The notes beneath the pieces are model-generated. The model was not told the origin of the DNA and searched no databases. It saw only the letters and a program-made list of their open reading frames with translations. A DNA stretch of 64,000 nucleotides from a virus. The translations under genes were made by a program, and so were the position numbers. Positions 34,316-47,703 of the stretch are shown in pieces; position 1 is the stretch's first letter, and every line of letters begins with the position of its first letter. The stretch is taken from the UHGV virus genome UHGV-0198106; one strand, 5' to 3'.

Positions 34316-34873
34316 TTACATTTTCCAATATAATGAAGGTGGGTCGTAAGGGTCAAATCCTGTGAGTTCACACAAGTATTTATAAACCTTAACAGTTAAG
34401 TTAACGTCCTGTTCACAATAAGTAAACATATCCTCAGTGAAAGCATCCCATGCTTCCTCTTGCTCACCGTAATCACCTTTAAGTTCCCCTAAGAACTCAC
34501 CCCATTGCTTCAAGCCATGACCTCTTGGGCCATGTCTAGGGTCGCCTTTCGGATACTCAGGACTGTCACCAATACGGTCAGGTTTAAGATATCGACTAAG
34601 ACATAAAGTGTCGAAGACGTTAAAACGATAGTCGATCAGATTGGGATACATTTTCTTCAGAGCACAAAGGTCGAAGTCAATAATGTTATGACCTAAGATC
34701 ACATCAGCTTCTGTAAGCTTACGAATCCCATCTTCAATTTGGTGAGGCCGATAGCCCCACCTTTCATCAGTTTCAACATCGAAAATATAAATACACCACA
34801 CTTTGGTTATATCATCGTATAGTGCATTACTCTCGATATCGAATGCAAACACTTTCTTCTTTTTCTTTACCAC
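34316..34873 (-). CDS. 3'-5' proofreading exonuclease (DEDDy), separate gene
   Basis: Exo I FAFDIES, Exo [11 protein letters not shown], Exo III YCEQD; GTG start. Confidence 0.8.
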
Positions 34874-35121
34874 GGTGAAGCTCCATCTGCTTGACTGACG
34901 AGAGAAGCTGCATCCTCTCCGTTAGTTAAAACGAATGGATTATCTTCGTCAACTTCAAAGTCTTCCCTTTCTACAAGTCTGCCGGTCTCACTGATATACT
35001 TAGTATAACAGACACCTGTCTGACCGTAGTTACGTTCTTTCAGTAATCGAATGACTGAGAGGTTCTTAGCTAAGCCATCAGCTTGCTTGTCACGCTCAAA
35101 GCCAATGATACACTGACACCA
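34867..35121 (-). CDS. primase-helicase, 3' exon (C-terminal segment)
   Basis: Encodes [36 protein letters not shown]..., collinear with the C-terminus of T7 gp4-type helicases; no own canonical start; exact splice junction uncertain by ~20 nt. Confidence 0.55.
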
Positions 35122-35747
35122 CAAAAGTTCAGATATGATCGCTACTCATACCCCGCACCACTACATGCTGCTTACAGTTTCCTGCAAGATCGGACTATCT
35201 CACCACACAAAAGTGTGCCTACTGCTTCCATTTAAGTCAATGTTAATGACACCACTTGGCTGTACTTCGGTCTTATGACCACCCTAGTCTCTGCACTTTC
35301 TAAACAGTCTTCCGTTTATAATTAAAGAAATTGTAACCTCTCTGAACATTCTCAGCGTTGGTTACCCACTCCAAATTAGTTGCCACGTTATTATCTCTTG
35401 TATGGTCCAAGTGATCAATAAATGGATAATTGTGAGGGTTAGGAACAAAGGCAATAGCTACTAGTCGGTGCATGTAGAATTTCTTTCTTTGTCCCGTATC
35501 CATTCTTAAGTAAACAGTTAAATATCCGTTGCCATGTCTGGCCCCTAAGATAACATTGCCTGTTTTACTATTATAAATCGTACCATCAGGCCGCACCCAA
35601 TAATTAGATGCACCTTCTATTTGTTTCTCTTCCATAAAGCCTCCTTGCTCTTGGAAGACTGTCTAGCTTAGCTCAGGATTGGCATATCTTTCGACTTAGC
35701 TTTCCCTGAGTTCAATAGGTTTTACATGCGCAGGTTTGTTTACGCAT
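35122..35747 (-). mobile_element. group I intron candidate carrying an HNH homing endonuclease ORF
   Basis: About 620 nt insertion between helicase motif H3/H4 region and the C-terminal exon; contains a complete HNH ORF; boundaries approximate. Confidence 0.5.
35300..35635 (-). CDS. intron-encoded HNH homing endonuclease
   Basis: HNH_3 motif IDHLDHTRDNNVATNLEWVTNAEN with N-terminal YWVRPDGTIYN module. Confidence 0.7.
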   Translation of the reverse strand: MEEKQIEGASNYWVRPDGTIYNSKTGNVILGARHGNGYLTVYLRMDTGQRKKFYMHRLVAIAFVPNPHNYPFIDHLDHTRDNNVATNLEWVTNAENVQRGYNFFNYKRKTV

Positions 35748-37277
35748 AAGGGAACGAGAACCAGTGAACTGCACTTCACGTACCTGTCCACCTTCTTCGT
35801 GAGGAGCACCACCTGCCGGAGCATTGAGGTGAGATAGAACGAAAGCGGTAAAGTCTAATTCTTTACACATACCAGCAAGCTCGGAAGCAATCTTACTGAT
35901 TTCAGTGTTAATCTCTGAAGGTGTTAAATGAGATACCAGAGCGGTAATGTTATCAAGGATGATAAACTTACACTGGTTTTCAACTACCCAGAAACGGATA
36001 CACTGTTTAATGTCTTCCCATTCGTTCTGTCCGAAGTTGTCATACAAGAAGAATTTGTCTGCATAACGAAGTGCTTCATTACGCAAATCCTCCTCATCAT
36101 ATTCAACATCTGGTCGGTGGAAAGGAATAGATGCTGACTTACCAGCAATGTTCTTAACAGACATGCCTACCTTCTCTTCCAAGAAGAAGCCACCTCCATT
36201 AAAACCATGCTCTAAGCACAGATGAGCAACCAGCTCGTGAGCAATGAGTGTTTTACCACTCCCTACTCCACCACCAATTGCTACCACCTCTCCCCATCGA
36301 ATACCGAAGGTCATTTCATTCAGAGTCTTCCACGGATAGGGGATACCCCATTCTGCTTTCTTCAGAGCATCATCAAGACAATCAAAGATTGTTACAGCAC
36401 CAGCAGGAGATTCCCGCTTTGCTGAATACTTGAGAATGTTGAATAACTCTTGACCACGACCAGACAGAAGCATGTCATTCGCATCCTTAATCTCTTTCTC
36501 CACACCGTTGTATGGGAAAGTTCCTTTAGGAATACGAGCAAACTTGACATGAGGGAATAAAGAACGACCTTTTGTTAAAGCTATCTCACCTGCATCATCG
36601 TTGTCCATGCAGAGCACAACCTCCTCAAAACCATTTACGAAGTCTCGATTACGAGACAACACAGAAGAGATTGAACCTGCACCGAACGGTAAAGAAACAC
36701 ATGCTGGCTTAATGTTTGTTGCATTTGTAAAAGCTGTAAGGACATGGAAACCAGACATACAAGATAGCGGGTCTTCAAAAATGAATAGCTTCTTGTTGTA
36801 CACATCACCACGCTGAGCCTGTGCCATACCAAATAAATCTGCTTCTTTCACACTGCCAACGTAATAAAACTTCTTACTATCTAGCAGTTTAACCTCGTAA
36901 CCAACGATGTTTCCATCACGTTCACGAGGAAAGAAGTAACTGTCTGGTGTCTGACCATCAGTTTGGCTGAGGCCAATGCGACACTCAAAACGCTCTGATA
37001 CGGCTTTAGGGATTAAACGTCGAGTAAGTTCACCCTGAGGAAGCTCTAAGCAATCATCTAAGACTTCTCTCAACTCTTCAGGGGATAACTCTTTCTTCTC
37101 GTTTGGAGTAGGTGTAGTGCCCTTTTCGAACACTTCGTAATTCCCACAACGGTTACAACTTCCCCACTCCTCACCGGTCTCTTCGTTACGGAAGAGAATC
37201 ATGTGGTTGTGGGTTTTATCACGACCATGAGAGATACATTCCTTACAGCCTGTGTCTCCCAAAATGATCTTTGACAT
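35742..37277 (-). CDS. primase-helicase (T7 gp4-like), 5' exon
   Basis: Zn-ribbon (CKEC...CNRCG), TOPRIM CMDNDDAG, helicase Walker A GGGVGSGKT and Walker B FIILDN; collinear with T7 gp4 through QFTGSRSL; track ORF runs on into the intron to a stop at 35712. Confidence 0.8.
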
Positions 37278-37743: not shown

Positions 37744-38163
37744 TTAACCCTCGTTTTTTAGATACTCTGACCAGTCTCCTGACTCAACCAGAACATCTTG
37801 TTCTTCGTCGATATGATAAATCCAAGCGATAACAGTTTCACCTGAGTCCATCTTAACAGCAATCTGGGTACGCTGATAGAAGCTATCTTCAGGGCTATGT
37901 TTGTTGTAGCCTTCCAGACGGTCATATGGACCTTCCAGACCTGCTTTGTCAGTAGCAAACACTTCTACACGAACAGGCTTATTGTTATTGCTGTGTGCGA
38001 GAGAGATGCTCGGGAAGTAGGAACCACCGTAACGGAACAGATCGAAGTTATCTTCAGTCCAACCTTCACCAATAGATTTAGCACCAGCTCGGTCATTAAT
38101 TAAATAGTTAGCTTGACCGCTTCTCAAACTTCCATAAGTTGCTACGTAAATTACTTCTGACAT
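37744..38163 (-). CDS. gamma-glutamyl cyclotransferase-like (AIG2/GGCT fold) protein
   Basis: N-terminal YVATYGSLRSG (YGxL) typical of AIG2/GGCT-like proteins; 139 aa. Confidence 0.5.
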   Translation of the reverse strand: MSEVIYVATYGSLRSGQANYLINDRAGAKSIGEGWTEDNFDLFRYGGSYFPSISLAHSNNNKPVRVEVFATDKAGLEGPYDRLEGYNKHSPEDSFYQRTQIAVKMDSGETVIAWIYHIDEEQDVLVESGDWSEYLKNEG

Positions 38164-38232
38164 TATCTATACCTTTGTTGGTTTGTTTAGTTTATCCGAA
38201 CTAGCCCCCTCTTTCGAAGAGGCTAAAGCAGA

Positions 38233-38418
38233 TTACTCTGTAATAAAGATTTTGATTACACCACAGATTGCTGCACTCTCAAACATTGCAACAGCTTCAC
38301 TTCCCTGAAAGAAGGTCACTTTGCCATCAGAGAAGTTAAACATATCAGCATCTAGGTCCATAGCTCGCATTTCACCAGCGGCATTGGTATCTTTAAACAG
38401 AACTTTATACTTATTCAC
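38233..38418 (-). CDS. hypothetical protein
   Basis: Track ORF, 61 aa; 4-nt overlap with upstream gene. Confidence 0.35.
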   Translation of the reverse strand: MNKYKVLFKDTNAAGEMRAMDLDADMFNFSDGKVTFFQGSEAVAMFESAAICGVIKIFITE

Positions 38419-38663
38419 AGATAGGTCACTCCTTTGTCTTGTTGTGCTTCAGCGATGATACGTTCTACACATTCCATAGAATACTTATCACCACGTTTCA
38501 GGAAAGTTACAATTGCAGAGAATTGATTACCAATCATTCGCTGATTAGTAATACCCCATTCCTCACACAACTTACGCAACTCTTTACGAGAGCCTACAAT
38601 CAGAGGCTCTTTTTGTTCCATCATTCCATTTTGTACTAGATCTTCCAATGAAAACATATCCAT
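38415..38663 (-). CDS. hypothetical protein
   Basis: Track ORF, 82 aa. Confidence 0.4.
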   Translation of the reverse strand: MDMFSLEDLVQNGMMEQKEPLIVGSRKELRKLCEEWGITNQRMIGNQFSAIVTFLKRGDKYSMECVERIIAEAQQDKGVTYL

Positions 38664-38669
38664 ATATCC

Positions 38670-39866
38670 TTAGTAGTTTACAACAGTGCCATCATTCAGG
38701 GTAAGGCTATTAATCTGCAACACACGACCAAGCTGACGATCACTAATTGGTGCGTTCCAACCAGAGCGGTAGAAGTTACGACCGCAGAAGAAAACAATTA
38801 CATTACTTGCTACAGTTGAGCCGTTTTCAGGATGCTTGATGTTCGCGATATAATAACCACGACGCAGGGTACGACGGGTGATTGGGTTGATCTCTAACCC
38901 TTGTTCTTCCACTTGCATTGTTTCAGGAACAGGTTCAGATGACTCTTCAGCAACTGGCTCAGCTGTCAATGCAAAGTTCTCATCATCCGCTGAGTCAGCA
39001 AACTCAACTTCCGACTCTTCAACAGGCAGTTCGTAAGCAACGCGGTAGTCAGGCTCAACACCAGAGAAGCTCTTAACAAACTCAACAATGTTGTGAGTGT
39101 AAGTTTCCAGAGTTGTACCAGTCAGACCCGGAGCAGTGTTTACTTCCAGAACCCAAGCGTTAGAGCCTTTACTAATCAGGTCAACAGCGCCGAAGTTTAA
39201 ACCCAGAGCAGACACAGCTTTGTGGGCTTGAATCAGAACTTGATCAGGAGGAGCTTCAGTGAAAGAGTTAGAGTAAACCCAGCCAGTGTGATGGTTGCGA
39301 ATATTTTCACGATAGCTTTCCAGTTCACGATATCCATTACGACGAATCTTCTTCTGAACGTAAGTGATAACACCTTCGAACACATGAACACGCCATTCAC
39401 GACGCGGACCTTGAATACCTTTCGTATACAGAGGAGCACTTGCAGTACCTTCTCCCGGAAGACGTACGGTGATGCCTTCACCAGAATGTCCAGTTAAGGT
39501 TGCACGCTCATAAACGATTTCGTTTTGGTTCCAGCTCTGAGCTACTTCACGATCAACGGTATATTCAACAGTCTTAACTCCAGCCAACCGTAATGCGTTA
39601 AATGCTGCAACTTTATTAGCTGCTCGGTTCAGGGCTTCAACAGGGTTCAGTACGGTTGCACCACCAAAGAAAGAAGCATCATAACGACGGTTGCCATAGT
39701 TTACAACAATATCACCGGCTCGAGAACGATAACGAGAGTTTTCTGATACCAGAGACATTACGTTAGCATTCAGTCGAAGTTCCTGAATCTTAGCATTAAT
39801 AGCAGAAGTAAGTTCACGAACTGAATCAGAAGGGCCATAAGGGAGAACACGGATACGAGTAGTCAT
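38670..39866 (-). CDS. ATP-grasp family ligase
   Basis: ATP-grasp C-terminal motif GAVDLISKGSNAWVLEVNTAPGL; acidic linker plus extra C-terminal domain. Confidence 0.75.
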   Translation of the reverse strand: MTTRIRVLPYGPSDSVRELTSAINAKIQELRLNANVMSLVSENSRYRSRAGDIVVNYGNRRYDASFFGGATVLNPVEALNRAANKVAAFNALRLAGVKTVEYTVDREVAQSWNQNEIVYERATLTGHSGEGITVRLPGEGTASAPLYTKGIQGPRREWRVHVFEGVITYVQKKIRRNGYRELESYRENIRNHHTGWVYSNSFTEAPPDQVLIQAHKAVSALGLNFGAVDLISKGSNAWVLEVNTAPGLTGTTLETYTHNIVEFVKSFSGVEPDYRVAYELPVEESEVEFADSADDENFALTAEPVAEESSEPVPETMQVEEQGLEINPITRRTLRRGYYIANIKHPENGSTVASNVIVFFCGRNFYRSGWNAPISDRQLGRVLQINSLTLNDGTVVNY

Positions 39867-39868
39867 TG

Positions 39869-40093
39869 TTAGATACCTTTAAGTTTAAGAATTTCGTTAC
39901 GAGTTTTTTGAATCTGAGCTTCAATTTCGAAGTAGTCATTGAACGCATCGTTCTCTACTTCATCGGATGGTGCATCAATCAGACCGAAAGCGAACGGATA
40001 CAGCTTTCGCTGCTCCGTTACTAATTCGATATGAACTCCTATGTAATACTGTAGGAGAGTAATCTTCGGTTTCTTAGGAACCAGATTTGACAT
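39869..40093 (-). CDS. hypothetical protein
   Basis: Track ORF, 74 aa. Confidence 0.35.
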   Translation of the reverse strand: MSNLVPKKPKITLLQYYIGVHIELVTEQRKLYPFAFGLIDAPSDEVENDAFNDYFEIEAQIQKTRNEILKLKGI

Positions 40094-40307
40094 GAGGTTC
40101 TACCTTAATGCCTTTGATTTTTACATAATCAGCAAGTACGTTATTGATCACCGTTGGGAACGGAACCTCAACCTGTGTCTCAAGTACTTGACCAATACCA
40201 GCTTGCATCCACTTCTGGATTGCACGAAGGTTGTCACATCCTGTGCTCGTCATCGGGATACGTCGAGTAGTTACAACATTATCCAACATCATCTTACGAA
40301 TTTCCAT
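40074..40307 (-). CDS. hypothetical protein
   Basis: Track ORF, 77 aa; overlaps neighbour. Confidence 0.35.
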   Translation of the reverse strand: MEIRKMMLDNVVTTRRIPMTSTGCDNLRAIQKWMQAGIGQVLETQVEVPFPTVINNVLADYVKIKGIKVEPHVKSGS

Positions 40308-40312
40308 CTGAT

Positions 40313-42343
40313 TTAACCTCTATTCAATGAACATTTAGGAGAATTACAATAAACTTGATTCATAGAACCAAGCGTACAACTTTCAGCATCGCGCCACGGA
40401 ATCTGCTTAAAACACTCTGAGCAGTATCCGAGGGTTGACCACATGGCTTTGGTGAAGTCAGTGCTTCGATTTCCGTCGAAGCTGACAACAGTTTTGCGGA
40501 GAGCTGTTCGTGATTCAGGAAACACACCTGCTTTCTCAGCAGGTTCCTCCTTTTTTGGCTTAGTCGAGATTGCAAAAATACTGTTGCCACGTTTCTCAAC
40601 ATAAGCATCAACAACATCTTCCAGAGTGATACCTGTTTGTTTCGCTGAGGAGGGTAATACGGTCATACGACCAATCATTTCCTCAGTTACACGTACAGCA
40701 ATTTCAGGACGACGGGTGTTTGTTGTATCTGTTGCTTTAATCCAGACATAACCATCTTTGATCGTAGCATTAGACACTTTCTTCTTTACTTCTACAGCAC
40801 AGTCTTTACAGATATCTTCACCACGGAGGCGGCTAAGTTCTTCATCGAACTCATTCTCTGTTTTAACCTCACCACAGATTTCACAAACACCGATAGGAGT
40901 CTCCTCCTCTTCTTCCTCTTTAGGTTTAGTCAACCTTTCCAGACACTCGGGATGCCAGTAGCACTGATATGCGAAGACTGCTTTAGGTGCATCCTTCCAA
41001 TCAATGTGCTTGTCACAACCACCACAATCACCATGAGAGTGTGCTTCCCAGAATTTACGAGTGATAGTAACGCCATTCTTGTTGACGAAACTATCATTCA
41101 TGTCAAAAGGGATATCATCATCGAAGTCAGCAGTAGTTGACTCAGGCTCCTTTTTCTCCAGAGATGGGTCAACAAAACGACCTGCTGTGATTACTAAACG
41201 AACCATAGCATCGACTTCGGAGATGCAGGATACTGTCCCACGGTAAACAATTTTAGGGTCTTTCAGGGCATCCTGATAAGCCTTAATGTCTACGTTATGA
41301 ACATCACCTTCAATGTACTCTTGAGATTTCTCATCGTAGATATAACCAATCATCTTACCACGAGAAGGAACAGCACCAGCAGTTGCATAGGGAACAAATT
41401 CATGTGGTGTGATTTCCACAGTCATGTCGCGGCGAATATCAATGTTTCGATCGCTTGCGATTTTGTTTTGACTTACCACTGCGTTTCTTCGACGAACGTC
41501 TGCCGCTGTCACTCCCGGCTTCGTGTCGTAAGGATTGCTTGTACTGCTTTTTGAGGAGCTTTGATAATTGCTTTGGCTGTAGTTGTTCGAGTAGTAACTG
41601 GCCCAACGATTGACTACCGTAAAAACCGGAAGCTCATGGGCGACCTCTTCAACCAGAGTCATGCTGTTGTTTGACATATCAAAGATATATTCTGTACCAA
41701 CTTTACATTCAAAGTGCTCATCAATTCGGTTTTTGTGAGACTTAGAACGCTTCAGAATCCACATCAGCATATCTTCTTCAGAAGCACCAAACCAATCTCT
41801 ATTACAACGTGCGAGATGGAAAGGACGCTCTTCGTTACGAATAATATGAAGACGGTTATCAGAAGCATCATGCCAGATTAAGGTGAAAGCACCATCCAGC
41901 TTTTGAATAGTCTCTGCTGCACCAATAGTGTTAATAGAGTAGCAGATGTTCTCACTGTCTACCTCGAAGTTTTTACTGTCAGGTAACAGATCTTGGTCCA
42001 TCAAGGTTCCGTTATGAACCAGAGTGATGTTACCGTGTTGGAAAGGATGGGCGTTCTTGGCGTTAACTGCACCTTTCGTTGCATGACGACTGTGACCAAC
42101 AATCCATGAAGGTGCTACAGTATAAGATGTTTCACCAGTGGTGTGCTTCTTATACTCATCTTGTAGGATGAATGCGAAAGAGGGAAGAGCTTCCTTATAA
42201 GTGAAGACTTCCTTAGTACTTTTACGCTGACCAAAGATACCAGAGGAATGTTGTCCTCGGAATACCCCAGCATAAAAGAGTTGGTTGAATACGTCTAAAT
42301 CGGTGCTTGACAGATTACCGCCAGCTAATACGATGCCGCAAAT
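40313..42343 (-). CDS. class-II (Ntn) glutamine amidotransferase domain protein with Cys-rich C-terminal region
   Basis: GATase motifs CGIVLAGG, GHSRHATKG, NAHPF, HNGTL are encoded upstream of the first ATG/TTG (track start 42004); frame is open to a TAG at 42347-42349; only start placing Cys at position 2 is ATT 42341-42343, 8 nt after AGGTGGA. Confidence 0.6.
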   Translation of the reverse strand: MCGIVLAGGNLSSTDLDVFNQLFYAGVFRGQHSSGIFGQRKSTKEVFTYKEALPSFAFILQDEYKKHTTGETSYTVAPSWIVGHSRHATKGAVNAKNAHPFQHGNITLVHNGTLMDQDLLPDSKNFEVDSENICYSINTIGAAETIQKLDGAFTLIWHDASDNRLHIIRNEERPFHLARCNRDWFGASEEDMLMWILKRSKSHKNRIDEHFECKVGTEYIFDMSNNSMTLVEEVAHELPVFTVVNRWASYYSNNYSQSNYQSSSKSSTSNPYDTKPGVTAADVRRRNAVVSQNKIASDRNIDIRRDMTVEITPHEFVPYATAGAVPSRGKMIGYIYDEKSQEYIEGDVHNVDIKAYQDALKDPKIVYRGTVSCISEVDAMVRLVITAGRFVDPSLEKKEPESTTADFDDDIPFDMNDSFVNKNGVTITRKFWEAHSHGDCGGCDKHIDWKDAPKAVFAYQCYWHPECLERLTKPKEEEEEETPIGVCEICGEVKTENEFDEELSRLRGEDICKDCAVEVKKKVSNATIKDGYVWIKATDTTNTRRPEIAVRVTEEMIGRMTVLPSSAKQTGITLEDVVDAYVEKRGNSIFAISTKPKKEEPAEKAGVFPESRTALRKTVVSFDGNRSTDFTKAMWSTLGYCSECFKQIPWRDAESCTLGSMNQVYCNSPKCSLNRG

Positions 42344-42422
42344 TTTCTAATCCACCTGAAGGGTAAACCCTTTCATCTAATTAACCTTTAAATTGTGCCC
42401 CTTTATCAGAGGCACCCATTGA

Positions 42423-43526
42423 TTACAGCGCTTGCTCTAACTGATACTCCAGATGATCTGGAATGTACCCTGTGATATTATTATCAATATGGCCTGACTC
42501 ACGAAGTAAGTCAAAGATCTCACGGATACATTGCTCTGGTGCAGATCGTACAGTAGATAGATCTGTTGTATTAAGCATGACCAAAATCTCTTGGTACAAG
42601 TTGTTAGCATTCCCTCGGACATATCCAAGGTATCCATAGAAGTCTGAGATAAGACGTAAGTCAACAAGAACTTCTCCACTTGGGTTGGTTCGACGTAAAC
42701 GAATACGACCAGACTGCTCTACTTCATGAGAACGGCAGTACAAAACATCACGGGCCATACAATACCCTGAATGCAAATCCAATTCATCCAGACTGTAATC
42801 TAGTGGAAGATAAGGAAGCATTGGGGCAAATCGTACAGTATTTAAATGCTCGATAAACTGATCATTGCTCATCTCTGCGTTATCTAAAGCCAGCTTCTTC
42901 AACATTAAGAAGCGGTTAACCAGATTGAGAAGTTGACCACGTTTCCACTTAGGCTCACTGATACGGAACTCGATCGAACCATATTGGGCAAGTGGCAGAA
43001 GGTTCAGAGATGTATATTTATCCCATGAACGAACCAGACGGTTGAAGAACTCTTCATCGTCGTAGTTAAATGCGTCAGAGGCATTCATTACCTGTGCTTG
43101 TACCACTGCGAAAGCAGGGCAGAAGTTGCTACGGTAACGATGGTAGCCTGAACACTTGAACAACATCTTTTCATAGAAGGTCCAAGCTAGAATGGTCTTC
43201 TTGAGGATATTACTATCAGCATCCCTCATATCCATATGAACGTGAGTAGAGCAACGCCAAGTCCCCTCGGCGTGCGATTCAGCTACTGCTTCACTCAGGT
43301 TGTTGATAGCGTCTAACAACTCCTGTCCGTTGTAAGGTCGTGAACATACCATTTCACAACCGTTACGCAGGGAACCATCCTCTGTGCAATCCCACATATC
43401 TGCTTCGATATGTTCAGAACCTTCGAGTTCAAGTTCAATACCGACACCGCACTGAAGTGCAATTGAACTATGCGCCTCAGTTAAACGACCTTCTCGATAT
43501 CCAAAAGTTTGCGCTACAGTTGTCAT
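42423..43526 (-). CDS. glutamine-synthetase-fold carboxylate-amine ligase-like protein (amidoligase candidate)
   Basis: N-terminal GVGIELELEG resembling the G-I-E-x-E motif of GCS2/YbdK-type ligases. Confidence 0.45.
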   Translation of the reverse strand: MTTVAQTFGYREGRLTEAHSSIALQCGVGIELELEGSEHIEADMWDCTEDGSLRNGCEMVCSRPYNGQELLDAINNLSEAVAESHAEGTWRCSTHVHMDMRDADSNILKKTILAWTFYEKMLFKCSGYHRYRSNFCPAFAVVQAQVMNASDAFNYDDEEFFNRLVRSWDKYTSLNLLPLAQYGSIEFRISEPKWKRGQLLNLVNRFLMLKKLALDNAEMSNDQFIEHLNTVRFAPMLPYLPLDYSLDELDLHSGYCMARDVLYCRSHEVEQSGRIRLRRTNPSGEVLVDLRLISDFYGYLGYVRGNANNLYQEILVMLNTTDLSTVRSAPEQCIREIFDLLRESGHIDNNITGYIPDHLEYQLEQAL

Positions 43527-44140
43527 AACGAATCCACCAACGTAATATTATAATTGCTAAGGTTTTCAGAGATGTGATGAAAATGTTCCAGAAGTCGCAT
43601 CGGTTGCTGACCGTAAGAGTCACGAGGTGCTTCCAGATCTACCTGACCTACCCGTGCACCTTTATAATGCACTTTACCATCTGTAGGGTTGATGTAAATG
43701 TAACGAGTAACCAATCCATCAAATTCAGGATTGAATAGACTGTAAACCATTTCCCCAGAGATAGAACGACCAACCCCCGGAGCATTTCGAATCTTGTTAC
43801 CCACCAAACCCTTCGCTCTCTGACGAACAGGGTTGATATGAGTCCAGCTTACAGTGTTACCATTATGGAACAGATAGCCAACATCAGGTGATTCAAGAAT
43901 CAAGGTTGGGTCAAACACTGGAATATTCATCGTAGTGTTTCGGAGAATCCCGTTCTCATTCTTGTACCATTGCTCTACAACAAAGTACAGAGCTTGTTCT
44001 GCTTCATGTGAGAAGTCGTCGCTGCGGAAGTTACCTCTCTGCTCAACACCAATCACAAAACAGGGAAGGTTGATGTTGCCTGCTCGTTTAGCAATCCATG
44101 TGCCACTATAGTAATGAGAAAAATCAGCTACTAAGCTCAC
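43523..44140 (-). CDS. hypothetical protein (amidoligase-operon member)
   Basis: Track ORF, 205 aa; 4-nt overlap with upstream gene. Confidence 0.45.
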   Translation of the reverse strand: MSLVADFSHYYSGTWIAKRAGNINLPCFVIGVEQRGNFRSDDFSHEAEQALYFVVEQWYKNENGILRNTTMNIPVFDPTLILESPDVGYLFHNGNTVSWTHINPVRQRAKGLVGNKIRNAPGVGRSISGEMVYSLFNPEFDGLVTRYIYINPTDGKVHYKGARVGQVDLEAPRDSYGQQPMRLLEHFHHISENLSNYNITLVDSL

Positions 44141-44149
44141 GATAACCTC

Positions 44150-44956
44150 TTATGCTACCTGAAGGAGTTTGATCTGCTGGTCCGCTTCTTTAACGTTATT
44201 ACCGTTAATAATTTCGTGAAGCTTCTCAATCGGAAGACGAGAGTGCAATGCCATCAGAGTGGACATATCACACTGCTGAACAACCTTGTCAACCTGATCG
44301 TAAACAAACTTACGATTTTCACGATCGTTAATCCAGAAGTTGGACAGTGAACGGTATTCAATACCGTAGTCCTTATAACGGATTGCAGATGCTTTGCCAT
44401 AAAGTTCTTTACGGCGAGTATCTTTATCCATGATAACTGCTGGGAGTGATAGGAAGTAGTCACACAGCACACCCAGCATCATCTGAGTTTGCAGAGTGAT
44501 ATCCAAAGAACCAACTACGCCAAGATGTACGTGACCACCGGCAGTACGAAGCCCCTTGTTCTGAGAAGTCGGGGATGGATTCTTCTGACCAGTGAAAGCG
44601 TTGAAATCAGGAGTACATCCGAAGATGAACGCTGATTCATTGAAAGTCTTCATCTCCTCTTCAGTGAAGATGTGAGAGCTAACACCCGGAGCTGTTTCCA
44701 TGTCCAGTTTGTTCAGGACTCTATTGGTGAGATCAATACCACGTTGCATGTTATCATTAAACGCTTCAAAACCGCTCTGTGGGTCAATATCAAACTCAGC
44801 CAATACGTTGTCCTCTTGAAGACGAACATCCTTAGCCAGAGCGATCTTATCGTCCTTAGAGCAGCCTAGAAGACCGGCTACAGAGGTGATGATTCCGTTG
44901 CTAGTACGAACGAAGAGCTCAGGGTCGCTGCCTATTAAGAATTTGCGCTTAGTCAT
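44150..44956 (-). CDS. second GS-fold amidoligase-like candidate
   Basis: N-terminal FLIGSDPELFV resembling the G-x-[DE]-x-E-[LF]-F motif of GS-fold ligases; weak. Confidence 0.35.
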   Translation of the reverse strand: MTKRKFLIGSDPELFVRTSNGIITSVAGLLGCSKDDKIALAKDVRLQEDNVLAEFDIDPQSGFEAFNDNMQRGIDLTNRVLNKLDMETAPGVSSHIFTEEEMKTFNESAFIFGCTPDFNAFTGQKNPSPTSQNKGLRTAGGHVHLGVVGSLDITLQTQMMLGVLCDYFLSLPAVIMDKDTRRKELYGKASAIRYKDYGIEYRSLSNFWINDRENRKFVYDQVDKVVQQCDMSTLMALHSRLPIEKLHEIINGNNVKEADQQIKLLQVA

Positions 44957-45920
44957 TGTAATACTCCACTAGTTCAGAAAAGAGAGATGAGATTGTGTTA
45001 CCAACTTCTTCAGTCGTAAGGCCAGAAGTTGGACCAGTACGCTGAATCAATCGGGCTGTAAAGTTTTGTACTGTAATGTTTTCCAACTTATTGTCTATTG
45101 TTTCACGTTTGTGACCATGACAGCTGGACCAGAGTCTTAACCACTCTGACATTGTTTCATACTCGTCCGGGTCTTGATCTTTAGCACGAGCAAATCTTCG
45201 TAAGGCATCTTGGTTATGGTTGCGAACATAACCGTCCTTGTTGTCACCAACACCGAAGGGGTTTTGAACCCACACTTGTTTCGTGTATTCATCAGAGTCT
45301 ACAACCAAAGGAAGGAATGCTGCTGCTGACATATTGTTGTTAATAACAATGGATGTGTTCTCTCCACTCCCATTGGAGGTTCCTCGTTGAGACCATCCAC
45401 CGAAGAAGTCTCGACCTAACCCAGCTAACACTAGAGCAATTCCGATGCGTTTACGCTTCAGCCACTCTTCCCTGTCTTCAATTCCTTCTGATAGGAAATC
45501 CATTCCACGATACTGCCCTTCCAGAATACTACGGAAGAGCATAAGTCCTGTGAAGATTTGATCTGCTGGATGCTCACGGAGGTTGACAGCAACACTATTC
45601 GCTGAAGTGATCGTAAATACATCACGATAGCAAGACATAGAGTTCATAATGTCTGCTGTTTCAACCAAGTTCTTTTCAATGTCAGATGCAGCGAGACCAT
45701 GAAAAGAGTGAGTCCAGTAATTCAACATCTCCAATTGCAAGTTGATATCACGGTTGAAGCGTTTATGAATCCCTTCTTCCATTACAGAGTCGCCATTAAT
45801 GTCATTTATGACTTGGCCTTGCATGTAGTTGTGAATACCGAAGCACCCACGACCTAAGAACTTCTGTTCCCCTAAATCTTGTTGAAGATTCAGAGGTACG
45901 ATCGTTGTGGAGATTGACAT
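44949..45920 (-). CDS. hypothetical protein (amidoligase-operon member)
   Basis: Track ORF, 323 aa; overlaps downstream gene by 8 nt. Confidence 0.45.
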   Translation of the reverse strand: MSISTTIVPLNLQQDLGEQKFLGRGCFGIHNYMQGQVINDINGDSVMEEGIHKRFNRDINLQLEMLNYWTHSFHGLAASDIEKNLVETADIMNSMSCYRDVFTITSANSVAVNLREHPADQIFTGLMLFRSILEGQYRGMDFLSEGIEDREEWLKRKRIGIALVLAGLGRDFFGGWSQRGTSNGSGENTSIVINNNMSAAAFLPLVVDSDEYTKQVWVQNPFGVGDNKDGYVRNHNQDALRRFARAKDQDPDEYETMSEWLRLWSSCHGHKRETIDNKLENITVQNFTARLIQRTGPTSGLTTEEVGNTISSLFSELVEYYND

Positions 45921-45930
45921 AACTAACCTT

Positions 45931-47130
45931 TTATTTTCCTAAAAATAATCCGCTCATAATACCATCCCATTCAGAGGATGGAACCACTGAATACTCCGAA
46001 CTTTGGTCCAGAGTTCCACTACTAAATCGCTGAATAATGTTATAGATGTTGAACATATCCTTAGTCTCGATACGATTACCGTAGAGTAATTTGTCAGCTG
46101 TTCTTTCACCTTTAGATACCCGACGAACAAAGTTAACCAGAAGGTTGTCACATTCAAGTGTTTCTGATCCACTCTTTACTAAATCGGGGTGCATCACCGG
46201 CAAGAACATTGAGTTATTAACTCGTAAATCTGATGTTTCGTTATTTTCATAACTAATCCATTTAAAATCTTCATCACGGAAGTGACCACAACCATGATTG
46301 TACGACTGCTGACGCCAAGGCACTTTAAATGCTTCAGTATACTTATCAGCCATACCAACTGTAAACAGTGATGCTGGGAAGATACAAGCATCCCAATCAT
46401 TACCAACCAGAGTTGTTTTTGTTTCTCCTAAGAGGTTAGTGTAAGTGCTAACCATTCGTGAGTAAACATAGGCCTGAAGGATTGTCCAGCCTTCAACCAA
46501 CCATTTATGAAGGAAGGTTTCAACCTGACTCTCTTCATCTTCACAATAGAAGGTTCGGTCTAACATCAAATAGAACAGACAACGGTCAGCATGGACATTC
46601 TCAGTTGCTACACCCATAAAACCTTTTTCGTGCCAGCGTAAACAGGAGGGACGGTCTTTGTCCACAAATGCTTCCATAGCTTCCAGTACAGCACGAGGTG
46701 TGGTTTGATACTCAGGGTTTTTGTCATTCCAACGTTCAATGTTATTTTTAAGCTCACCTTCCTGATCAATATTACCCCAACCCAACCCTTTGGTTACAGG
46801 CTTTTTGTCACGATAACTCAGAAAACCTAACATATCTAAGTGGGTTCCAGAGTTCCAGATATGTTTAATATCGCACATATCCATCTCGTCACTTAACAGG
46901 CAGTCTTGCCCATCTGCACTACGAATATTAGATGCTTCGCTCCAAACCTTAACGTGCATATTCCACCCACGAGTTGCCTCATAGGTGTTAGGTTCAAAAT
47001 ATTCATCGTATTTGCCATCATCACCTTCATCAGCACCACCGTTATAGTTGCGGAGCTGAAGGAATCCATAGCAAGGAGGATAAACCGTTAAAACATTACC
47101 TTCAGTATCTTCTAATGTTACTGGAAACAT
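45931..47130 (-). CDS. hypothetical protein (amidoligase-operon member)
   Basis: Track ORF, 399 aa; Cys/His/Trp-rich. Confidence 0.45.
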   Translation of the reverse strand: MFPVTLEDTEGNVLTVYPPCYGFLQLRNYNGGADEGDDGKYDEYFEPNTYEATRGWNMHVKVWSEASNIRSADGQDCLLSDEMDMCDIKHIWNSGTHLDMLGFLSYRDKKPVTKGLGWGNIDQEGELKNNIERWNDKNPEYQTTPRAVLEAMEAFVDKDRPSCLRWHEKGFMGVATENVHADRCLFYLMLDRTFYCEDEESQVETFLHKWLVEGWTILQAYVYSRMVSTYTNLLGETKTTLVGNDWDACIFPASLFTVGMADKYTEAFKVPWRQQSYNHGCGHFRDEDFKWISYENNETSDLRVNNSMFLPVMHPDLVKSGSETLECDNLLVNFVRRVSKGERTADKLLYGNRIETKDMFNIYNIIQRFSSGTLDQSSEYSVVPSSEWDGIMSGLFLGK

Positions 47131-47141
47131 TGTACCAACCT

Positions 47142-47504
47142 CTATTGGTTTTTAATCAACTCAATTGACTTACGGATATAAAGAATATCTCGGAAGTTTC
47201 TGTAGTTGTTCATAAATTGGTGCTTCTGAAACTCAGCTTCAAGCAGAGCTTCTTTAGCACTTTCGTAGTTCTGGCGGGCAAGATGTACAACCCGCTCTGG
47301 TAACGTGTTTGCGCGACGTATAACATACTTGTGAGCTTTCATATTACTTTGCTCACGAGCAATCTTACTTTTCGCTACCGTAATACCATTTGCAATCCAA
47401 GCAAGCTCTTGCTCAAGTTCTTCGTTGGACATACCACCGAGGTTTGATGCAACCTTGTTCAGAGTTTCAATATTAACGTTGCCCTTAATGGGACGTGTAT
47501 TCAT
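47142..47504 (-). CDS. hypothetical protein
   Basis: Track ORF, 120 aa, helical. Confidence 0.45.
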   Translation of the reverse strand: MNTRPIKGNVNIETLNKVASNLGGMSNEELEQELAWIANGITVAKSKIAREQSNMKAHKYVIRRANTLPERVVHLARQNYESAKEALLEAEFQKHQFMNNYRNFRDILYIRKSIELIKNQ

Positions 47505-47678: not shown

Positions 47679-47703
47679 AAAAAAGGACTCTCCGAAAAGA
47701 GTC
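47679..47703 (-). terminator. rho-independent terminator
   Basis: On minus strand GACUCU-uuucgg-AGAGUC followed by UUUUUU. Confidence 0.7.

Follow-up and report, generated by a model that had tools for sequence, protein, structure and literature searches.

A phiEco32-type amidoligase cassette in a Kuravirus genome, its conserved core and a putative amide-linked pathway

The window analysed here is a 64,000-nucleotide (nt) stretch of the virus genome UHGV-0198106, and the subject of this study is its segment 37744-47130, in which genes for two GS/GCS-fold ligases, an ATP-grasp ligase, a class-II glutamine amidotransferase-like protein and a gamma-glutamyl cyclotransferase-like protein lie together with several unassigned genes (Table 1). 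Over its full length this segment is 93% identical to the Escherichia phages NJ01, Paul, ES17, SGF2 and about 65 others, and by its sequence the window is assigned to Kuravirus within the Gordonclarkvirinae, as a phiEco32-like C3 podovirus (coliphage). Elsewhere in the window, genes were found for a family-A DNA polymerase, a sigma factor, PhoH, ThyX, a dCTP deaminase, a PolyA_pol-like nucleotidyltransferase and a primase/helicase. We conclude that the genes of the segment are the phiEco32-type amidoligase cassette, already described by comparative genomics in 2009. They include a PF14395 gene and co-oriented genes for Amidoligase_2, amidotransferase and ATP-grasp in this order, and they lie ahead of the primase/helicase gene of a virulent podovirus; in families, order and position no structural difference from the phiEco32-type cassette was seen here.

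With reference to Iyer et al. 2009, PMC10580990 gives the suggestion that phiEco32 uses its amidoligase and amidotransferase to alter the cell wall against superinfection. Duhaime et al. 2017 (PMC5498523) named a "peptidoglycan modification cassette" consisting of a gamma-glutamyl amidoligase, a second amidoligase, an ATP-grasp protein, a gamma-glutamyl cyclotransferase and a glutamine amidotransferase. Its conservation in RIO-1, phiEco32, 7-11, PA11, tf, MR299-2, LUZ24, PaP3 and CW02 is reported there after Hardies et al. 2013. The gene table of the LUZ24-like phage UFV-P2 has the same order (PMC3890496). The initial annotation of the window, which was made from the sequence alone, had stated that no characterised phage system of this composition was known to its author. 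This holds for experimental characterisation, as no experimental study of the cassette was found in full-text literature searches, but the composition itself had already been published and the family PF14395 is named for phiEco32.

Enzymes of the cassette

All cassette genes lie on the minus strand and abut or overlap, and only two longer spacers occur, of 79 nt before the amidotransferase gene and 69 nt before the cyclotransferase gene. The positions and tight junctions confirm the packed, co-oriented arrangement at 37.7-47.1 kb read earlier from the sequence, and support a single co-oriented, translationally coupled module. Profile searches likewise upheld all five fold assignments that had been made from motifs (GGACT, GATase_6, Amidoligase_2, PF14395 and ATP-grasp), and all five enzymes have invariant catalytic residues across lineages of only 20-50% identity.

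The first of the GS/GCS-fold proteins, called ligase-2 here, matches PF14395 (E 2.7e-8, 33.8 bits, gathering cut-off 25), the Pfam family "Phage phiEco32-like COOH.NH2 ligase-type 2", as well as PHROG 3815 (E 1e-117), and its residues E13, E54, H142, H144, E200 and R202 are invariant in eight lineages. The second, Amidoligase_2, matches PF12224 (E 4e-8, 34 bits, cut-off 22) and PHROG 7469 (E 4e-155); invariant are E31, E33 and E35, which form an acidic metal-binding strand (ExExE), the histidine pair H95 and H97, and E186 and R188 of a late Glu-x-Arg. The cyclotransferase-like protein (GGCT) matches PF06094 (E 8e-17, 62 bits, cut-off 22.8) and has an invariant Y10 and G11, in the substrate-binding YGS/TL motif, and an invariant catalytic-position E84. 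Profile searches of PDB sequences with these three proteins gave no useful match. The ATP-grasp protein matches PHROG 2599 (E 9e-185); its Pfam matches to Dala_Dala_lig_C/RimK are weak and under the cut-off, its NCBIfam matches to MptN (E 4e-8) and the RimK family (E 1e-7) are both well under cut-off, and its nearest PDB sequences are Ddl and an alpha-L-glutamate ligase. Because every curated family model scores under its cut-off, the protein is assigned from its sequence to the ATP-grasp superfamily, and not to RimK or Ddl proper. Its residues K85, E157, R159, D229, E241 and N243 are invariant in eight lineages; K85, D229, E241 and N243 correspond to the Lys and the Asp ... Glu-x-Asn motif that bind ATP and Mg in the grasp fold.

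The amidotransferase matches GATase_6 (E 2e-14) and has the features of the class-II enzymes, namely a catalytic cysteine (Cys1) that becomes N-terminal once the Met is removed, and, for glutamine binding, the arginine of the HxRxAT motif, an Asn-Gly oxyanion pair and an aspartate; H83, R85, N110, G111 and D128 are invariant in an alignment of 47 sequences. The Ntn domain is followed by a linker of low complexity, a small segment rich in beta structure, a second, acidic linker and three cysteine-rich, zinc-finger-like modules. No synthase (ammonia-acceptor) domain was found, and the C-terminal 390 amino acids (aa) have no Pfam or PDB match. The scores against GlmS, PurF, AsnB and EgtC models are 18-39 bits, compared with cut-offs of 219-418 bits, and the protein is therefore predicted to be a stand-alone glutaminase/amidohydrolase or to depend on a separate partner. 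Orthology to GlmS, PurF, AsnB, EgtC, RimK and Ddl was considered and rejected, as the curated cut-offs are missed by far and the partner domains are absent, in agreement with the initial annotation, which had not taken the genes for ordinary biosynthetic orthologues. A PADLOC scan for known or candidate anti-phage defence gave zero matches.

Table 1. Features of the cassette and its surroundings in descending position, followed by related loci in other genomes (L numbers are cassette loci compared here; ORF, open reading frame)
Feature	Position	Strand	Junction with next gene	Remarks
Terminator-like hairpin	47686..47703			Upstream of 120-aa ORF
120-aa ORF	47142..47504	minus	Directly abuts X1	PHROG 11370; no Pfam match
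X1, 399 aa	45931..47130	minus	10-nt gap	N-terminal C[FY]G motif
X2, 323 aa	44949..45920	minus	8-nt overlap	Apparent distant paralogue of X1
Ligase-2, GS/GCS-fold carboxylate-amine ligase type 2	44150..44956	minus	9-nt gap	PF14395
X3, 205 aa	43523..44140	minus	4-nt overlap	Universal core protein
Amidoligase_2, GS/GCS-fold ATP-dependent carboxylate-amine ligase	42423..43526	minus		PF12224
Amidotransferase leader	42344..42422	minus		Two hairpins, 9-codon upstream ORF, Shine-Dalgarno AGGTGGA, then ATT
Upstream ORF MKGFTLQVD	42347..42376			9 codons
Cys1 codon	42340..42338			Immediately after ATT
Class-II (Ntn, Cys1) glutamine amidotransferase-like	40313..42343	minus	5-nt gap	676 codons, ATT start
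77-aa protein	40074..40307	minus	20-nt overlap	Pfam DUF7195, E 5e-17
74-aa protein	39869..40093	minus	2-nt gap	PHROG 13464
ATP-grasp ligase, RimK/MptN/Ddl type	38670..39866	minus	6-nt gap	~110-aa C-terminal extension
phiEco32 gp79 homologue	38415..38663	minus		Annotation of phage Paul orthologue
61-aa ORF	38233..38418	minus		Uncharacterised
GGACT/AIG2-like gamma-glutamyl cyclotransferase	37744..38163	minus		PF06094
Primase/helicase gene	34867..37277			Directly downstream of cassette
620-nt insertion	35122-35741	minus		In primase/helicase gene
HNH_3 endonuclease ORF	35300-35635			Within 620-nt insertion
ATT start/leader loci	Window 42341-42422; L001, L002, L006, L034-L037, L042, L049, L071, L103, L110, L111	minus (window)
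X1/X2-type pairs	Window 44949-47130; L002 6428-8178; L003 6354-8191; L004 5049-6986
HNH insertions	L006 12202-12672; L007 6209-6643, 10916-11383; L008 7546-7989; UFV-P2 ORF24
Mis-annotated amidotransferase	Records of NJ01, Paul, SU7, BUCT695; cluster P0020 (211 members)

Core genes, gene order and distribution

The module was recovered with identical gene order in all eight annotated phages compared, which represent at least five taxa: Paul and SU7 (Gordonclarkvirinae), BUCT695 and A24 (Grimontviridae), LUZ24 (Bruynoghevirus), PA11 and Klyazma (Zobellviridae), and phiM6. In 8/8 it ends just upstream of the primase/helicase gene. Gene order was further counted in 80 viral loci retrieved from IMG/VR, where Amidoligase_2 and the amidotransferase each occur in 78, ATP-grasp in 74 and GGCT in 36, always co-oriented. 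Nearly all of these loci have the order ligase-2, X3, Amidoligase_2, amidotransferase, ATP-grasp and, where present, GGCT; six loci have the amidotransferase or ATP-grasp ahead of ligase-2. The synteny search that had been suggested as a check thus returned the same order in 74-78 of 80 independent viral contigs, and the arrangement is well beyond chance.

Between ligase-2 and Amidoligase_2, an ORF of 190-240 aa is found nearly everywhere, and 72/77 of these belong to the X3 family after profile iteration. Since this family stands between the two GS-fold ligases almost everywhere, the universal core consists of five genes, namely ligase-2, X3, Amidoligase_2, amidotransferase and ATP-grasp, with the GGCT-like gene as a frequent addition.

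The cassette is widespread among phages. Searching with ligase-2 by tblastn yielded 307 GenBank phage records (Pseudomonas 121, Escherichia 94, Vibrio 22, Aeromonas 11, others), and the IMG/VR scan yielded at least 561 contigs, one of which (L035) has a ligase-2 that is 98% identical. Within the Gordonclarkvirinae the cassette is as universal as the DNA polymerase gene (99 and 93 records, respectively), and by nucleotide sequence it is the better conserved of the two. A search of 100,044 species genomes of bacteria and archaea found ligase-2 at only 20 loci, and as these are contigs of at most 50 kb from metagenome-assembled genomes or tiny scaffolds, they are taken for phage DNA. The cassette is phage-restricted and essentially absent from cellular genomes, and with all bacterial loci phage-like, cellular neighbourhoods offer no clue to its function.

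The initial annotation had counted six unknown proteins of 205-399 aa and supposed that they give the pathway its specificity. The locus holds three of that size (205, 323 and 399 aa) and four small ORFs of 61-82 aa, and X3 alone is universal, X1 and X2 being lineage-specific. X3 has no relative in Pfam, NCBIfam, PADLOC or PDB, and a profile search of 1.84 billion representatives returned 64 clusters, all of stand-alone proteins. Only seven positions are conserved across the family, none suggestive of catalysis, and a conserved loop is predicted to be disordered. From its sequence X3 is probably non-catalytic, and it looks like a partner or a substrate. A Pup- or ubiquitin-like tag was sought among the 61-82-aa ORFs and X3 and rejected, their C-termini being unconserved.

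X1 and X2 are lineage-specific accessory proteins. As a paralogous pair of approximately 300-400 aa they are limited to enterobacterial C3 phages and LUZ24-like phages; by tblastn, X1 was found only in Kuravirus-like phages (98 records), is missing from most environmental cassettes, and had no match in Pfam, NCBIfam and PADLOC scans. X1, X2 and their positional analogues in BUCT695, A24 and LUZ24 have three colinear motifs in common, an N-terminal C[FY]G, 'AD(Q)...R(N/S)' and 'G[YH]xR[ND]', and hhalign probabilities within the group are only 25-47%; they appear to form one highly divergent family that occurs as a paralogous pair. The predicted structure of X2 has a pLDDT (predicted local distance difference test) of 58 and matches generic ferredoxin-like folds only. 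The C[FY]G motif raised the idea that the pair are cryptic Ntn hydrolases; the model has low confidence around this motif, and an RGxxSxG-type second motif is absent.

Amidotransferase start codon and neighbouring genes

The amidotransferase gene starts with ATT, directly before Cys1, and its relatives begin MCGIVLAGG. The Shine-Dalgarno sequence lies 7 nt upstream of the ATT, an in-frame TAG stands two codons upstream, and the short upstream ORF ends 3 nt before the start. In 72 cassettes the codon before Cys1 is ATG 62 times and ATT 10 times, the latter in at least five lineages and invariably as AAAATT; the Klyazma gene starts with ATC and that of PA11 with TTG. Over the 40 nt ahead of the Cys codon, Kuravirus and Aeromonas phage BUCT695 are identical at 38/40 positions, compared with approximately 31% identity of the proteins. 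An Rfam scan of the leader gave chance-level matches only. The non-canonical start and the conserved leader suggest translational control, for which the AUU start codon of infC and its discrimination by IF3 provide a precedent. Because the start codon is non-canonical, the amidotransferase is truncated in public annotation: most GenBank records give a 563-aa product from an internal TTG, or a start at MTSTD or MVSRD, so that Cys1 is lost.

The cassette lies at the end of the early region, immediately ahead of the replication genes. The 120-aa ORF that precedes X1 is probably the first gene of the unit; phage SU7 has the same arrangement, with a terminator annotated there. The promoter consensus of phiEco32 gp36, TAATGTATA, has zero exact copies within 37.7-47.5 kb. 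Orthologues of the DUF7195 protein follow the amidotransferase in SU7, BUCT695, A24 and LUZ24 (gp20), and the protein occurs in 16/80 viral loci. The gp79 homologue is embedded in the cluster and stands outside its chemistry; phiEco32 gp79 is an RNA-polymerase-binding transcription regulator (PMC8948821), and phages of the 7-11/GAP52 type retain the cassette with gp79 missing.

Mobile elements were observed at and beside the cassette. Genes for HNH homing endonucleases occupy different cassette junctions in different phages, between X2 and ligase-2 (SU7), beside the amidotransferase or beside the amidoligase. The primase/helicase gene of the window has a precise 620-nt insertion relative to phage Paul, which holds an HNH_3 endonuclease ORF and matches the Rfam group I intron RF00028 with E 1.2e-5 and 30 bits, under the gathering score of 50. 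The insertion is probably a mobile group I intron that divides the gene into ORFs of 521 aa and 85 aa.

Predicted chemistry and candidate targets

From the protein families, catalytic residues, core composition, synteny and phage restriction observed above, we infer a reaction order, a substrate class and a biological role: an ATP-dependent cytoplasmic pathway would build, and then convert or trim, an amide-linked gamma-glutamyl or peptide adduct on a substrate other than DNA. To this reading as a whole we give about an even chance. The class of chemistry, building and trimming of amide or gamma-glutamyl bonds, is likely, a non-DNA target is moderately likely, and peptidoglycan would be only one candidate. 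Gamma-glutamyl chemistry is proposed because the fold set equals that of GS/GCS ligase, ATP-grasp, Ntn amidohydrolase and cyclotransferase, and it is reinforced by phiM6, which has extra genes for a gamma-glutamyl hydrolase (Peptidase_C26) and for a further amidotransferase and GGCT. The five core proteins and the frequent cyclotransferase would be expressed early, before or at the onset of replication, and would be active in the host cytoplasm at the expense of ATP. The three ligases would convert carboxylates to acyl-phosphates and join these to amines, the amidotransferase would pass glutamine-derived ammonia to a ligase or hydrolyse a gamma-glutamyl amide, and the cyclotransferase would release a gamma-glutamyl group as 5-oxoproline, while X3 may serve as a non-catalytic scaffold, specificity subunit or substrate. 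If the published guess for the target, which is an analogy, is followed, a murein-peptide precursor would be modified, the cell wall changed and superinfection blocked.

Several known systems resemble the cassette in part. The gamma-glutamyl cycle and glutathione metabolism use the same four fold classes, with a GCS-fold ligase, an ATP-grasp synthetase, an Ntn hydrolase and GGCT. However, the phage proteins are not orthologues of GshA, GshB, Ggt or ChaC, the Ntn enzyme of the cassette is of the Cys-type class II and that of the cycle is the Thr-type GGT, and only the cassette has two GS-fold ligases and an obligatory X3. In butirosin biosynthesis the ATP-grasp protein BtrJ works together with the cyclotransferase BtrG, as does EgtA with the class-II amidotransferase EgtC in ergothioneine biosynthesis; in both, the ligase installs a gamma-glutamyl group that the cyclotransferase or amidotransferase removes. 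In contrast to these pathways the cassette has no carrier protein, pyridoxal phosphate enzyme, oxygenase or methyltransferase, and the similarity of its amidotransferase to EgtC is marginal (20 bits, cut-off 219). MurT/GatD and the AsnB-type LtsA are also alike in combining a glutamine amidotransferase with an ATP-dependent ligase, by which a carboxylate of the murein stem peptide is amidated, but MurT is a Mur ligase and GatD a class-I amidotransferase, whereas the phage proteins have other folds and no murein-related domain was found in them.

Some observations weigh against the proposed adduct pathway or its peptidoglycan variant. Literature searches found no reported substrate, product or phenotype of the cassette, and its proteins have no recognisable peptidoglycan-binding or Mur-ligase domain. 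The structure predictions of X2 and X3 are of low confidence and assign no fold, and with the zinc-finger-like modules and the non-catalytic X3, a macromolecular target would fit as well as a small one. The groups on which class-II amidotransferases and GGCT act are L-glutamyl, but in murein D-isoglutamate is present.

The first alternative is protein tagging or glutamylation, in which the ligases would add glutamate or a gamma-glutamyl-linked group to a protein of the host or phage, perhaps to X3, like RimK on ribosomal protein S6 or PafA/Dop on Pup, with the amidotransferase and cyclotransferase as deamidase and eraser. This would suit the ATP-grasp protein, which is closest to RimK-type alpha-L-glutamate ligases, and the amidotransferase, whose zinc-finger-like modules suit the binding of a macromolecule. 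It would also give a place to X3, universal and apparently non-catalytic with its loop predicted to be disordered. The canonical substrate of GGACT is epsilon-(gamma-glutamyl)-lysine, and in pupylation, too, two paralogous GS-fold ligase-type proteins (PafA and Dop) are combined with a deamidating activity on a glutamine/glutamate side chain. The cassette, however, has no Pup-like protein, no proteasome link and no detectable sequence relationship to that system beyond the fold class. Its small proteins do not end in a conserved Glu, Gln or Gly suited to a tag, no Lys or Glu of X3 is invariant over the whole family, and the literature yielded no proteomic report of an adduct of this kind. A 2025-2026 paper on post-translational modification of Klebsiella pneumoniae fimbriae (PMC13419641 / PMC12632600) names an amidoligase and may offer a precedent for such an enzyme with a protein target. 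We consider protein tagging unlikely.

An auxiliary metabolic role, in which host nitrogen, glutamine or glutathione-type metabolism is rerouted to feed phage replication, seems to us improbable. Compounds made or recycled could include gamma-glutamyl peptides, glutathione-like thiols, gamma-glutamyl-polyamines or polyglutamyl tails on folate-type cofactors. The set of folds parallels that of the gamma-glutamyl cycle, ATP-grasp enzymes of the RimK/MptN/CofF type cap the glutamyl tails of cofactors, and the gamma-glutamyl hydrolase of phiM6 would fit as well. Several genome papers file these genes under auxiliary metabolic genes. Typical auxiliary genes, however, are host-derived, whereas this family is phage-restricted and has no close host metabolic orthologue, scores being well under curated cut-offs; a universal non-enzymatic X3 and zinc-finger modules would also be odd for simple metabolic enzymes.

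Hypermodification of phage DNA, by an amino-acid-derived amide group on a base, had been among the targets named in the initial annotation and would explain the resistance of Gordonclarkvirinae to restriction-modification. These phages are reported to be remarkably restriction-resistant with no known modification pathway (BASEL 2025), and as the window (1-64000) keeps 30 EcoRV, 8 EcoKI, 93 EcoP1 and 9 EcoRI sites, the resistance is not explained by avoidance of these sites. Amidoligase and amidotransferase Pfam matches co-occur with thymidine-hypermodification genes in metagenomic contigs (PMC8989533), and known thymidine hypermodification pathways are likewise multi-enzyme phage clusters that add amino-acid-derived groups (Lee et al., Nucleic Acids Research (NAR) 2021). 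The cassette always adjoins replication genes, but this reflects a shared ancestry of layout and is not independent evidence. Five type II enzymes (RsaI, HpaI, EcoRV, SmaI and HaeIII) cleave the virion DNA of the cassette-bearing Pseudomonas phage tf, which was also cloned. Searches of the cassette revealed no DNA-handling domain, though the unassigned X1, X2 and X3 could conceal a novel fold of that kind. The dUMP hydroxymethylase, 5-HMUDK and aGPT-Pplase of the thymidine pathways, as well as TGT/DpdA and glycosyltransferases, were not detected by Pfam, NCBIfam and PHROG searches of the cassette and 10 neighbouring middle genes, and ThyX and the dCTP deaminase are ordinary and sufficient for a normal dTTP supply. 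Moreover, there is strong avoidance (z about -9.4) of GATC (134 observed, 287 expected in the window) and CCWGG (7 observed, 97 expected), a sign that unmodified A and C are subject to host pressures linked to Dam/Dcm; CTGCAG is strongly avoided as well (0 observed, 19 expected). We regard a modified DNA base as improbable. Similarly improbable is that the core installs a novel covalent mark, an amino-acid or gamma-glutamyl group, on a macromolecule targeted by X3 and the zinc-finger tail, which could be sequence-specific sites of phage DNA or a key host or phage protein, and that the restriction resistance of Gordonclarkvirinae results from this mark.

The cassette has been a purely computational prediction for more than fifteen years, and is among the most widespread multi-enzyme modules without an assigned function in virulent podoviruses. 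To its description we add that X3 is the universal fifth core gene, that X1 and X2 are lineage-specific, and that the amidotransferase is usually mis-annotated via its ATT start. Gordonclarkvirinae are in therapeutic use, and essentially every record that could be counted carries the cassette. Identification of its substrate would account for an early step of host takeover that is conserved among phages infecting E. coli, Pseudomonas, Vibrio, Aeromonas, Klebsiella and marine bacteria, and could expose a new ligase chemistry or a new anti-defence strategy.

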